Shown: in pieces, positions 11,693-38,044 of the stretch | How the letters are laid out: each line of letters begins with the position of its first letter | Position numbering within the stretch: position 1 is the stretch's first letter | Assembly: GCA_951406725.2 (NCBI GenBank) | Contig: OX597824.1 | Span: forward strand, 26,474,001-26,538,000 | From: Octopus vulgaris | Taxonomy: Eukaryota | Direction of reading: 5' to 3' | Length of the DNA stretch: 64,000 bases | Position numbers and translations under genes: made by a program | Notes under the pieces: generated by a model | Seen by the model: the letters and a program-made list of their open reading frames with translations, nothing else | Database searches by the model: none | Told to the model about the DNA's origin: nothing

Positions 11693-11797
11693 AGCCATCG
11701 GGCCTTACAGAGGGTAATTTCAAGGCCATGTTCAATAATCACACCTTGAGCTCCAGGCACTGGGATAAAAAGAAAACTACCAAATTATCCAGTCATA

Positions 11798-13068
11798 CGA
11801 GGGGCGTTCAATATGTATTGCCTCTGACCCACTTGCATGTACAATTATTGATATCTCTATAGATTAAGTGGCAAATTACAGCTCCGAACTAATTGTGGTT
11901 TCTGATTTACAGGTGTTTGAAATGAGTAATGAGTCAAGTGGGAAATGGAGCATGTTGAGTGTCGAGCAGTGATCCGGTTTTTGTATTTGAAATGACGCAC
12001 ACCACAGGAGACTTTTAATAAAATGAAAGTAACTTATGGTGATGATGCCCCATCATATGACCCTGTAAAACGCTGGCATCGTGAATTCAAACATGGTCGG
12101 AACTCTGTGAAAACAGCTCCCAGATCTGGTCGCACCCCTTCTGCCATTGAGGAGGCATCTGTCCGTCAAGTTGATCTGCCATTTTGGAAGATCGACGCAT
12201 AACTATTCGCCAAATAGCCCATGAGGTCAAGATTAGTACCGGGTCTGTGGAAACTATCATTCATGACCATTTGCATATGCAAAAGGTGTCTGCCAGATGG
12301 ATTTCCAGGTTGCTCACACTTTTCCAGAAGCAAGAACGCAAGAATTTCAGAAGCAAGATTTTAGGGATGTGCCAAGAAGATGAGTCAAAATTTTTCAAAA
12401 GACTGATTACACAGGATGAGACCTGGGTCCATCACTATGATCCAGAGACCAAAGCCCAGTCAATGCAGTGGAAGCACCATGACTCACCTCCTCCAAAGAA
12501 GGCAAGGGTGCAGCCCTCCGCTGGCAAGGTCATGCTCACAGTCTTCTGGGACCAGGACGGAGTAGTGATGACAGATTTCCTGGCAAAGGGTACCACAATT
12601 ACAGGAGCCTATCATGTTTCACTTTTGAGGAAATTAAGAGAAGCTATCGAAACCAAGAGGCGGGGCAAGATCAGCAAAGGCATCCTCCTCCTGCAGGACA
12701 ACGCTCCGGTCCACAACTCGCGTGTCGCCAGATCAGAAGCACAGGCGTGCGGCTATGAACTCTTCCCCCATCCCCCTACTCTCCTGACCTTGCACCCTCT
12801 GATTTTCACCTCTTCCCAGCCATGAAGTTGTTTTTGAAAGGAAAGCGTTTCCCAGATGATGCAGCCTTGATTTCTGAAGTCACGTCGTGGTTGGAGGACC
12901 AAGCTGGGGTCTTCTACGAAAACGGTCTCCAGAACTGCATCAAACGATGGGAGAAATGCGTACCTCTGGGTTGTTTCTATGTAGAAAAAGACTAATACCT
13001 GTGCCAAGTTTCGTTGCTCTACTGCTATGGGAAGTGGGTCAGGGGCATTACTTATTGAACGCCCCTCG
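11798..13068 (+). mobile_element. Full-length mariner transposon (irritans/Himar1-like), 1271 bp
   Basis: TIRs CGAGGGGCGTTCAATAtGTAtTGCCtCTGACCCACTT / AAGTGGGTCAGGGGCATTACTTATTGAACGCCCCTCG; TA duplication at 11796-97 and 13069-70. Confidence 0.97.
11945..12995 (+). pseudogene. Mariner DD34D transposase, inactivated
   Basis: MEHVECRAVIRFLYLK*..., KVSARWISRLLT, TQDETW, SAGKVMLTVFWD, LQDNA, YSPDLAPSDFHLF (after a frameshift); early stop and frameshifts. Confidence 0.95.
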
Positions 13069-13443
13069 TATATGGTCATTTAAAGATAAAGGTGTCAGTT
13101 ACAGCATCCATTGGAAGATCTTAGCCAAGTGTAAGCCCTACACCAACGGCAGTGGAAAGTGCGGTCTATGTGATATGGAAAGATGGCTCATCTGGAAAAG
13201 CAGCTTAGACTCCGTTACATGTCTGAATTCTAGAACTGAACTTTTCGGATCATGCCCATATGTGGCCAAATATTTGTTACGTTTTTGGTCCCCCCGAGAT
13301 TACAGATAAAACTTACTTTCTGTATTGTGTCCACGTACAAGCTTTTTATACCTTTATACCTTTTACTTATATTTCTTATATATTTTTATTTATATTTTTT
13401 ATACATATATTTTTTACATATTTATAGAGATGTTCGATGGCCG

Positions 13444-13504
13444 GATAACTGAAGAGGTGGTGTCGTGGATTTCCACCTCGGCATCCAAAACTCGGAGTTT
13501 TATC
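13444..13504 (+). ncRNA. Hammerhead ribozyme motif in the 3' pLTR, core mutated (GAAA to AAAA)
   Basis: GATAA CTGAAGA ggtgg...ggcatcc AAAA CTC G GAG TT TTATC. Confidence 0.6.
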
Positions 13505-13607
13505 ATGATTACCGAATAATTGTCACATATTACATTTACAGATAAATTTCTCTATTTACATAATATCGAGGTCCCTTTCATTCTTTTGTTGTCTTACCAT
13601 TTTTATC

Positions 13608-15172: not shown

Positions 15173-15213
<41 letters not shown>

Positions 15214-15217
<4 letters not shown>

Positions 15218-15669
15218 ATAGAGGGCATTATTACACATAAATGCCTCACACTAAGAGGGACATAAGTCATTACTACCAAAATTTCACTAATCATACCTAA
15301 TGCAGTTTTTCAAAGCAAGACATTTAAAAAATGAATTTAGTTCTATATCACCTGTGATTTCACATTTACCGCATATAAAATATGCGTCTATGCTCATCAG
15401 TAGAACTGATTCTGAACACATCATAAATAAACGACCGACATTACCTGGCGAAGTCGAACAGACAACTGCTCTCTCCGGCGAAGCACATGGAGATGTTTAT
15501 AAATCATATATTCGGTAAATAGCGGGATTTTTCGAACTGCATTTCGGGTAGGAAAAGTTTTTTTCGGAATAAATTTAACAATAATGCCTCACACTAAGAG
15601 GGACATAAGTCATTACTACCAAAATTTCACTAATCATACCTAATCATACTTTGCCAGGTAATGTCGGTC

Positions 15670-15670
<1 letters not shown>
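15214..15670 (-). mobile_element. Small non-coding hammerhead-containing retroelement (retrozyme / PLE pLTR-like) with 62-bp terminal direct repeat
   Basis: 15240-15301 = 15583-15644 (period 343); 15648-15670 is the inverse of 15432-15454; (TA)n on both sides; contains a canonical hammerhead. Confidence 0.8.
15339..15407 (-). ncRNA. Type I hammerhead ribozyme with a canonical core
   Basis: Minus strand: AGTTCTA CTGATGA GCATagacgcatattttatatgcggtaaATGT GAAA TCAC AG GTGA TA TAGAACT; 7-bp stem I, extended stem II, stem III TCAC/GTGA, AUA cleavage triplet. Confidence 0.88.
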
Positions 15671-15751: not shown

Positions 15752-16130
15752 TCTGAGAACATGATCTATACAATTTAGAAATCAGGACGATAGAAGAAGA
15801 GAAATCACGAGGAGAAAACCTACTGGTTTTACTCGTGTCCATGGGCCAGAAAGAAGACAAAAGGTAAACTATCTATCTTTCAAGTTGGCTAACTACATAT
15901 GGGATTTGAAGACGCCACATATATCCAAGAGGAAAATGGTAGAAAAATTCATGCCATATGTGAATGGTTTGAAGAAATGCAAGTTATGAGTAGCTGAAAG
16001 ATCGCAACTCCTTTTTAGACCTAAGAACTTCATCGCACTGCTGAATTCCAGATTAGAAATTTTCACCAAATGGAATCATATAGACAAATTTCTTTTGGCG
16101 AATTTGAGAACACCGCACTCTCTGAATTGA
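15752..16130 (+). pseudogene. Second, more decayed PLE GIY-YIG endonuclease fragment
   Basis: KLANYIWDLKTPHISKRKMVEKFMPYVNGLKKCKL*VAERSQLLFRPKNFIALLNSRLEIFTKWNHIDKFLLANL aligns motif by motif with the 11701-13309 peptide; directly follows (TA)n. Confidence 0.75.
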
Positions 16131-20833: not shown

Positions 20834-22073
20834 TCAGGTCATTCCATAAGTTCTGTCCGATTTTATCTATTTTAAAATTGAATAAAATTTAATAGTATTT
20901 TAGAATGTTTAATGGAATTAAAAATATTTTTATGCATTTGTGTACATTTAAACTAATTAAATATTATTTTACAGAATAATAGAGTTAAAATTTCTTTGAA
21001 TAAAACCCTTTCTAACATGGAAGTATCCATAGAGCATTTAAGGCACATAATGCTTTATGAGTACAAAACAGGAAACTCTGCAACCGAAGCGACTTGAAAC
21101 ATACACTCAGTTTATGAGAAAGAATGCTTGAATGAAAGAACTTGCAGAAGATGGCTTGCAAAATTCAGAAGTGGAGATTTTATCCTTGAAGATGAAGATC
21201 GAACAGGACAGCCTGTTGAGTTTGATGATAAGCTCCTTGAGGCAATACTTGAAGAAAATCCTGCATTATCAGTTGCAGAATTGGCAATAAAGCTTAGTTC
21301 AAACCATACAACTGTTCGTCGTCATCTTCAACAACTTAGAAAGGTTCCTAAATTTGGAAAATGGGTGCTTCATGAATTGTTCGAAAGCAACCGCAAATCC
21401 CGGACATCTGCTCTTCTTTCCATTCTCGTTTTATCCTTTTTGGATAGACCTGTGAGTGGTAACGAAAAATGGATCTTCTATCGAAATGTTAAACGTCGTA
21501 AACAGTGGCTTGGTAAAAGGGAAAAAGCTCAACCACAAACGAGAAGGGAACTTAATGAAAAATAGGTTCTTCTCTCTATCTGGTGAGATTGCAAACGAGT
21601 AATTCACTTTGAATTGTTACCACCTAATGCAACAATCAATGCTCAAGTCTACCGGTAAGCAATTAGAGCGTTTGAACCAAGCTTTGAAGAAAAAGAGACC
21701 CGCTTTTGTAGGTTTCTTCAGGACAATTCATGAACCCACACTGCAAAGATCACATCACAGAAGATCGAAGAGCTTGTTTGGGAAAAAACATTCCTCATCC
21801 ACCTTATTCTCCCGACCTTGCTCCTTCAGACTACCATTTGTTTCGTAGATTACAGAATCATTTGGGGGACATAACTTTCGCAAGCCAGGAGGAGGTCGAA
21901 ATTAACATTTCAGAATTCTTCGCTTTGAAACCAAAAGCGTTTTACATTGATGGGATTTAAAAGCTTGTAAATAGCTGGAAGGAAGTCATAAATAATCAGG
22001 GAAAGTACATTGATGATTAAATTTCACTTGTTTTCTTTATTCAAAATTCGGACAGAACTTATGGGATGACCTG

Positions 22074-37334: not shown

Positions 37335-37548
37335 CTTTTACTCTTTTACTCTTTTACTTGTTTCGGTCATTTGACTGTGGCCATGCTGGAACACCGCTTT
37401 TAGTCGAGCAAATTGACATCAGGACATATTCTTTGTAAGCCTAGTTCTTATTCTATCGGTCTCTTTGCTGAACCGCTAAGTTACGGGGACGTAAACACAC
37501 AGCATCGGTTGTCAAGCGATGTTGGGGGGACAAACACAGACACACAAA
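37335..37548 (-). mobile_element. SINE family A 3' half, abutting a Dong/R4 fragment
   Basis: (cttttact)n tail and body up to the internal microsatellite. Confidence 0.88.
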
Positions 37549-38044
37549 CACCAGAAAAGGTCACAGAAAACGAGAAAGCAACCATACTCTGGGATATGCC
37601 GATACACACAGATAGAGAAATTAAGGCCAACAGACCAGATATAGTTGTCAGAGACCATGAAGAAAAAAAAATGCTTTCTAATTGATGTATCAATACCGGC
37701 TGATGACAACGTGTCTCTAAAAGAAATGGAGAAACTCTCAAAATACAAAGACCTGGAAATAGAGGTAACTAGAATGTGGAATCTGAAAACAGAAACAATT
37801 CCTATCATAGTAGGTGCATTAGGCATGATAAAAAAATATTCAGACAAATACATAACAAAAACACCAGGACTTACAAACACATACAACATACAGAAAATTG
37901 CACTACTAGGCACTGCACACGTCCTACGCAGAACACTTTCCATACAATAACCATCAGAGCATCACAACAAATCATAGCACATACCCAAGGCACACAGAGC
38001 TGCGCTCGGTAGTGAAGTGAAAGCACGCTATAGAAATAAACCTA

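Follow-up and report, generated by a model that had tools for sequence, protein, structure and literature searches.

The locus described here raises the question of whether an insert in octopus DNA that carries a hammerhead ribozyme motif derives from a small circular or tandem RNA or from the end of a larger retroelement. The insert occupies positions 15214-15670 (457 bp) inside a TA microsatellite of the window, i.e., the whole 64,000-nucleotide stretch of Octopus vulgaris DNA that was analysed. The initial annotation took it as a retrozyme candidate, a copy of slightly more than one unit of a circular or tandem RNA of about 343 nt, with the fallback that it would be simply the pseudo-LTR (pLTR) of a Penelope-type element (PLE). 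This fallback fits best. The insert is probably a single copy, likely immobile, of the 3′ end (the pseudo-LTR region, which bears the hammerhead) of a high-copy, likely Penelope-type family; it likely entered (TA)n by target-primed reverse transcription (TPRT), with the repeat and the inverted arm likely made in that one insertion. Of the earlier reading, the part that sees a reverse-transcribed mobile insert stands, whereas a family of circular or tandem RNA with the 343-bp period as its unit is not supported. 

Anatomy and coding content of the insert

On the minus strand, the order of the element is 5′-inverted arm (23 bp)-R (62 bp)-X (281 bp)-R (62 bp)-tail (23 nt)-3′, with the following features:

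15174..15213, no strand: (TA)20, the left half of the microsatellite target, on the 3′ side of the element
15217..15239, minus: 3′ tail of 23 nt, present at the 3′ end only, the fixed end of the family
15221..15247, minus: predicted 3′-terminal stem-loop (fold prediction), with the tail-less end, 15240, at the start of the loop
15240..15301, minus: 3′ copy of repeat R, 62 bp (sequence comparison)
15302..15582, minus: unique segment X, 281 bp, non-coding, with a structured sense strand (contigs, folding)
15339..15407, minus: type I hammerhead with a predicted cut at 15346/15345 (descriptor and fold; family variation in contigs)
15414..15513, minus: predicted long imperfect hairpin immediately upstream of the hammerhead (helix probabilities 0.6-1.0)
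15423..15454, minus: template sequence for the inverted arm (15454-15432), with the U/A-rich 9-mer next to it (15431-15423)
15583..15644, minus: 5′ copy of repeat R, the tail-less 3′ end of a second 5′-truncated piece (partial tandem, pseudo-LTR-like)
15630..15649, no strand: 10-bp head-to-tail duplication at the inversion junction, likely slippage (sequence)
15648..15670, plus: 23-bp inverted arm, head-to-head with the main copy, locus-specific (single-contig depth)
15671..15742, no strand: (TA)36, the right half of the microsatellite target

The 62-bp direct repeat at a spacing of 343 bp, the 23-bp inverted segment at the 5′ end, the short tail and the (TA)n flanks described by the initial annotation are all present. 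The two copies of R (15240-15301 and 15583-15644) are identical at 62/62 positions and lie 343 apart, and the inverted arm (15648-15670) equals the reverse complement of 15432-15454 at 22/23 positions. The tail becomes 26 nt long if counting starts at 15214, with 15214-15216 as junction letters. Relative to the other family copies, segment X is 5′-truncated at 15582. The last 2 bp of the 10-bp duplication (15630-15649) are common to the inverted arm. The U/A-rich 9-mer (15431-15423) matches (TA)n at 7 of its 9 positions; a match of at least 7/9 is found at only 4 of the 357 positions of the monomer, and the inverted arm begins at one of them.

The GC content of the element is 0.35. When folded as a circle, the 343-nt stretch is 68% paired with a z of −4.1, and folding of its two strands gave a z of −4.2 for the sense strand vs. 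−1.2 for the antisense strand. The traits of a non-LTR retrozyme (non-coding, 150-450 bp, GC under 50%, self-paired) are thus found here. In the hairpin upstream of the hammerhead, 22 variant sites were mapped with half of the variant rows covered; within that half, one variant (15480 with 15447) likely restores a pair, and those at 15521, 15445 and 15440 break pairs of the minimum-free-energy (MFE) structure if their partners are unchanged. The window's letters at 15521 and 15527 are absent or nearly absent from the compared contigs, being either private mutations or assembly errors.

Two stop-free stretches, of 55 and 69 codons, lie on the sense strand of the element. The 55-codon frame gave no match to a Pfam family and no longer protein relative (the latter a weak negative), and a profile of the PLE endonuclease C-terminus matched nowhere inside the element, both frames included. 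Single-base deletions occur within the 55-codon frame in family contigs, and the candidate role of this frame as the end of a PLE ORF was rejected on all of these grounds, i.e., the lack of a Pfam match, of longer relatives and of a profile match, together with the deletions. The earlier statement that there is no meaningful ORF agrees with this outcome, as Pfam, protein relatives (for the 55-codon frame) and the endonuclease profile revealed no coding role. Nor does the element contain a linked ORF with reverse transcriptase and GIY-YIG domains; upstream of it, the family sequence covered amounts to only 20-21 nt.

The 343-bp period and the family in sequencing-run contigs

Part of the element is contained in 20 of the 21 listed sequencing runs, and the contigs of four of them (X1, X2, X7 and X11) were compared. 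X1 and X2 are DNA-like runs from different samples and studies and with different organism labels; X1 is possibly the assembly's own source, and X2 is more independent. X7 (34 contigs) and X11 (29 contigs) are guessed to be RNA and were used as sequence variants only, so that their zero depth over 15598-15670 carries no weight. Contigs are mostly under 135 nt, and the counts of variants, indels, joints and loose ends given here are those among the matches listed. Summed depth is expressed as a multiple of the depth of the inverted arm (28.3 in X1 and 32 in X2, set as 1 and similar to the lowest contig depths listed) and is not a copy number.

On this scale, depth reaches about 28,000 (X1) and about 18,000 (X2) at the 3′ end, about 10,500 and about 9,300 just upstream of the hammerhead, and about 390 and about 815 at 15534-15581. 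The tail is among the deepest-covered sequence of the family. Loose ends before 15217 are mixed and AT-rich, in at least 17 contigs of X1 (agreement 0.61) and at least 3 contigs of X11, and because they are both mixed and AT-rich, the 3′ end is fixed while the targets vary. The family thus has many copies, whose 3′ end is fixed and whose targets are AT-rich, and its depth is steeply biased to the 3′ side. The bias resembles that of 5′-truncated target-primed retroelements, by analogy, and divergence from other subfamilies may be part of its cause.

The contigs that reach 15582, at least 7 in X1 and at least 3 in X2, continue into a different sequence of 20-21 nt with an agreement of 0.99-1, and two contig records end at 15582 with 20 unlike letters. 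Because the contigs diverge at this position, the R-X join is not the native junction of the family. In X1, the bin at the R-X junction has a depth of 117 (about 4x single-copy) vs. 6,601 (about 390x) in the preceding bin. The same bin is high in X2 (12,943), probably on account of a single contig (depth 13,125) that could belong to either R copy and has a deletion that the locus lacks. No go-back joint across the 62-bp repeat is found among the joints listed, the only one listed being a 106-bp skip in one X2 contig; a go-back joint could be missed, since the contigs are mostly under 135 nt and the repeat takes up 62 bp.

The inversion junction gives a different picture from the R-X join. Both bins of 15646-15670 are equal in depth (28.3 in X1, 32 in X2), so that one contig per run spans the junction at the single-copy level, and this spanning in both X1 and X2 shows that the junction is real and belongs to this locus. 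The element differs from the family majority at 16 listed sites. Where such sites fall in duplicated sequence, the duplicate carries the element's letter at 3/3 of those in R and at 6/6 of those in the arm template, and these shared minority alleles point to one template or one source.

The view of the 343-bp period as an RNA unit is not supported by these data: the contigs diverge at 15582, the X1 junction stands at about 4x single-copy, the joints listed include no go-back joint, the tail falls outside the unit and there is one hammerhead. Because the tail lies outside the 343-nt unit, a pure 343-nt circle cannot template the 3′ end, and because R is without a hammerhead and the ribozyme is consequently single, the locus cannot excise a unit. 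An active retrozyme is described as having at least two consecutive units, each with a complete hammerhead (10.64898/2026.07.22.740005). At this locus there is one hammerhead in place of at least two consecutive complete units, and the repeat period is not the family unit, the X2 bin being ambiguous. With both of these defining tests failed at this locus, the element is not established as a non-LTR retrozyme.

The alternative that survives best is a young retrozyme subfamily with a 343-nt unit and a tandem array elsewhere, of which a tail-ended multimeric RNA or a circle would have templated this locus as a 1.2-unit offspring. We consider this unlikely. The unit would lie in the retrozyme size range of 170-400 nt (PMC7229834), the sense strand is highly and strand-specifically self-paired, the two R copies are identical at 62/62 with minority alleles common to both, the hammerhead is nearer to the canonical than to the minimal PLE form, and the X1 junction at about 4x single-copy leaves room for a few other copies. 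In addition, a twin-priming geometry, as proposed below, suits tandem RNA, and the order of the pieces is that left by X-R-X-R-tail; since the geometry also fits such a tandem RNA, this alternative stays alive. However, the tail is not in the unit and yet is among the deepest-covered family sequence, the contigs continue differently at 15582, the X1 depth is 117 at the junction vs. 6,601 in the preceding bin, a go-back joint is absent from those listed, and there is only one hammerhead. A version that joins the two views is likewise improbable. Here, PLEs would mobilise a non-autonomous hammerhead element, dispersed in many thousands of copies through a cephalopod-like genome, and circular RNA would come from a young tandem subfamily with a 343-nt unit. 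If it were true, the locus would record the birth of a retrozyme from a PLE, or its re-insertion by one, via twin priming on multimeric RNA; if the tandem source and the circle exist, they would be a direct test case for the derivation of animal retrozymes from PLE pseudo-LTRs.

Comparison with known elements and the proposed insertion

PLE insertions have been described with partial tandems, an adjacent inverted 5′-truncated copy, a tail at one end only and a (TA)n bias (PMC8557442, PMC3846280). The element shows a partial tandem together with 5′ truncation and a tail at one end; an adjacent inverted 5′-truncated piece at 15648-15670, which ends internally and not at the 3′ end; and a type I hammerhead whose stem III is palindromic, placed close to the 3′ end, in a microsatellite target. 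Its closest likeness is to the pseudo-LTRs of EN+ PLEs, especially Neptune, with which it shares the type I hammerhead, palindromic stem III and long stem II, the 5′ truncation, partial tandem, one-end tail and head-to-head inverted piece, and the (TA)n target with no visible TSD (PMC4209133, PMC8557442). It differs from them in that no ORF is seen in it, its stem III of 4-5 bp is longer than that of minimal PLE hammerheads, its tail is 23-26 nt long and its inverted arm ends at an internal U/A-rich site.

The Poseidon element PAc of Anolis offers an in vitro counterpart. In AT-rich DNA, both strands are nicked and extended by purified Poseidon PLE protein, which initiates reverse transcription in a stem-loop, at two positions with the tail between them (PMC11167929). 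The element is similar to PAc in its AT-rich target, two 3′ ends separated by the tail, 3′ stem-loop, apparent extension of both target strands and ends that lie about 106-129 nt past the hammerhead cut (PMC11167929). In contrast, the PAc ORF starts inside the hammerhead, whereas none is supported in the element, and the 3′ loop is AC-rich in PAc and U/A/G-rich in the element (PMC11167929).

Metazoan non-LTR retrozymes resemble the element in being non-coding, in GC content (35% here), type I hammerhead and self-paired RNA, in a period of the same size range and in probably being moved by PLE protein (PMC7229834; 10.64898/2026.07.22.740005). Unlike them, the element has one ribozyme and no tandem of hammerhead units, and its 343-bp period is not that of the family. 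A preprint argues that retrozymes derive from PLE pLTRs and are non-autonomous (10.64898/2026.07.22.740005), which brings the labels "retrozyme" and "PLE 3′ end" close to each other. Twin or dual priming of LINE-1 provides a third comparison, in that it leaves an inverted 5′ segment and a target junction with microhomology to an internal RNA site (PMC2837659). The element differs from LINE-1 in lacking a poly(A) tail and a TSD (PMC2837659), and its inverted piece, unlike that of twin priming as described in this source, duplicates sequence of the main copy, so that a second or tandem RNA is needed.

These likenesses can be combined into a proposed course of the insertion. A PLE endonuclease would nick (TA)n, and reverse transcription would begin at the tail end and copy 366 nt of a linear RNA. 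It would then halt at 15582, restart at the tail-less end in the 3′ hairpin loop and copy 62 nt. The other target strand would prime internally at the U/A-rich 9-mer and copy 23 nt, as in twin/dual priming, and the two cDNAs would be joined via a 10-bp slip and a 2-bp microhomology. If the element were transcribed by read-through, its hammerhead could make no more than one cut per transcript; cleavage would probably be slow and would go best with a dimer or with protein help. The locus would thus, in this proposal, release no unit-length RNA. The source may be either an autonomous PLE or a derivative of more than 366 nt that is itself non-autonomous, and the family could well lack autonomy. 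Of the possible movers, a Neptune-type PLE is the most likely.

Several observations speak against the PLE reading. No PLE ORF is linked to the family, of which 20-21 nt are seen beyond 15582, and the self-pairing of the sense strand (z −4.2 vs. −1.2) resembles that of retrozyme RNAs. By comparison with PLE tails, which are usually 30-40 bp (PMC8557442), the tail of 23-26 nt also appears short.

A further alternative, to which we give only a small probability, places the repeat and the inversion after the insertion, by duplication or repair at the DNA level in a fragile (TA)n tract, or regards them as assembly artefacts. The region is extremely rich in microsatellites, and the letters at 15521 and 15527, found in almost no contigs, mean that some changes are private or errors. 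Against this, contigs at single-copy depth cross the inversion junction in both X1 and X2, and the tail-less R end and the microhomology to (TA)n suit priming sites of a reverse transcriptase.

As most likely read, the element is an ordinary representative of the already described hammerhead-bearing PLE ends, and the locus matters little, because hammerhead PLE ends with partial tandems and inversions are known from many animals. Its modest value lies in the clean trace that it preserves, in the genome, of the way in which PLE insertions are put together. The tail between two 3′ ends, and an arm start with microhomology to the target, fit the extension of both strands by PLE protein in vitro (PMC11167929). 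A literature search by title and start of abstract found no paper that applies twin priming to PLEs. The literature listings searched gave no description of an octopus or cephalopod hammerhead; Repbase and Dfam, both outside that search, may catalogue the family, which may also already be named in the supplements of PMC13282606 or 10.64898/2026.07.22.740005.

The hammerhead motif and neighbouring elements

The initial annotation described a perfect CUGAUGA/GAAA/AUA core with a 7-bp stem I and a cut between 15346 and 15345 on the minus strand, and a complete type I core is indeed found there, with the cut correctly placed. Stem I pairs 15407-15401 with 15345-15339 (7 bp, minus strand), and the boxes CUGAUGA and GAAA lie at 15400-15394 and 15361-15358 on the same strand. 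Stem II (15393-15390/15365-15362) has 4 bp, including a G10.1-U11.1 wobble, and a 7-bp hairpin extension. Stem III is palindromic, with either 5 bp and a 2-nt loop or 4 bp and a 4-nt loop. The cleavage triplet is AUA, in which H17 is 15346, from which the cut between 15346 and 15345 is predicted. The general features of a type I hammerhead, i.e., a CUGANGA/GAAA/NUH core and three helices, open at stem I, are all seen.

A descriptor scan of the window gave four loose matches, of which only this hammerhead reaches 7/4/4 bp or more in its stems. Shuffling the window 100 times (6.4 Mb, both strands) yielded 0 matches to this strict form and 29 loose matches. Rfam gave 0 matches at the gathering score in the window, and the hammerhead family is absent among its 22 weak matches at E ≤ 10; because Rfam gave no hammerhead match, the call rests on the descriptor.

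In the family contigs, N7 (15396), which is the free position, is the one place in the catalytic boxes with a listed variant (8% in X1, 60% in X2). The closing pair of stem II, G10.1-C11.1, is G-U in the element, and C11.1 is found in 36% (X1) and 69% (X2) of the covering depth. G makes up 94-97% of depth at position 2.1 and C stands at 1.1 in two loose-end groups, which hints at a swap from A-U to G-C at 1.1/2.1. A U follows A9 in many family contigs, and one family variant has the same stem III palindrome with a 1-nt centre. Contigs about 83% identical to the element keep GAAA and stem III and have a different stem II. The subfamily at about 83%, represented by X11 and X7 contigs on 15217-15361, keeps the tail and R as well as stem III and GAAA, and its stem II region is unrelated.

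From its sequence, the motif is a genuine-looking, textbook type I hammerhead with predicted self-cleavage. That it is a chance match in AT-rich DNA is very improbable: no Rfam hammerhead model matches it and, in each of the 18 contexts tested, its fold is 3.7-12 kcal/mol less stable than the MFE, but strict matches number 0 in 100 shuffles, the listed core variation is limited to N7, and contigs with about 83% identity retain both GAAA and stem III, with a stem III variant that preserves the palindrome. A scan of viral sequences for the hammerhead core motif returned 8 loci, all 8 of them chance matches without CUGANGA upstream or further similarity, and a second pattern scan of viral sequences and two of metagenomes gave 0 matches.

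The earlier claim that a 2-nt loop III implies dimeric cleavage is overstated. Stem III folds at −0.6 kcal/mol alone vs. −13.2 kcal/mol as a self-dimer, so the palindrome favours the dimer, and PLE hammerheads are reported to favour dimers (PMC4209133, PMC6765202). However, stem III can also form as 4 bp closed by a 4-nt loop, and hammerhead repeats of coral and mussel self-cleave as monomers (PMC7229834), which is why dimer cleavage, plausible and favoured in the folding model, is not implied.

Two PLE remnants lie near the element. The first, at 13070-13309 (plus) and 2 kb from the element, encodes a GIY-YIG endonuclease C-terminus with 1322 relatives at E ≤ 0.001 in a full HMMER search; a word-index search with the same piece had given no match. 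The relatives include proteins with reverse transcriptase motifs, a cysteine linker and the same C-terminus (P0097, P0110), and their Pfam support is weak (2/8 proteins, below the cut-off). From the linker as described in PMC8557442, this remnant is likely of Neptune type. Its upstream part lies at 11698-11797 (plus), separated by a mariner of about 1.27 kb with 40-bp inverted ends that agree at 37/40 positions. About 140 nt past the stop codon of the remnant there is a decayed type I hammerhead (13444-13505, plus) with CUGAAGA, one mismatch at G12, a palindromic stem III with a 1-nt centre and a 5-bp stem I; a relaxed hammerhead descriptor gave 2 matches in the window vs. 1 in 50 shuffles. 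The second remnant, a more decayed PLE endonuclease C-terminus at 15840-16127 (plus), lies just past the right (TA)n and faces away from the element, and no hammerhead was found after it. The element was also considered as an inverted pLTR of this second remnant, a candidate that was rejected as the alignment scores were no better than those of shuffles (166/200 and 163/200 of which reached them). Alignment against shuffles showed no DNA similarity between the element and the 3′ regions of either remnant, for which reason the remnants illustrate the design and a possible kind of mover and do not represent the partner.

Other repeats are present in the window. Mariner-type transposase fragments lie at 12175-12900 and 21098-21565 (both plus), the first with a match to Pfam Transposase_1 (E 8e-24) and the second taken from the ORF list. 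At 37512-37961 (minus), the opposite strand of the ORF text gives the impression of an RTE/LINE remnant. A dispersed SINE-like repeat, which we take to be an octopus SINE, is present in at least 5 copies across the window (24-mers occurring 5 times).
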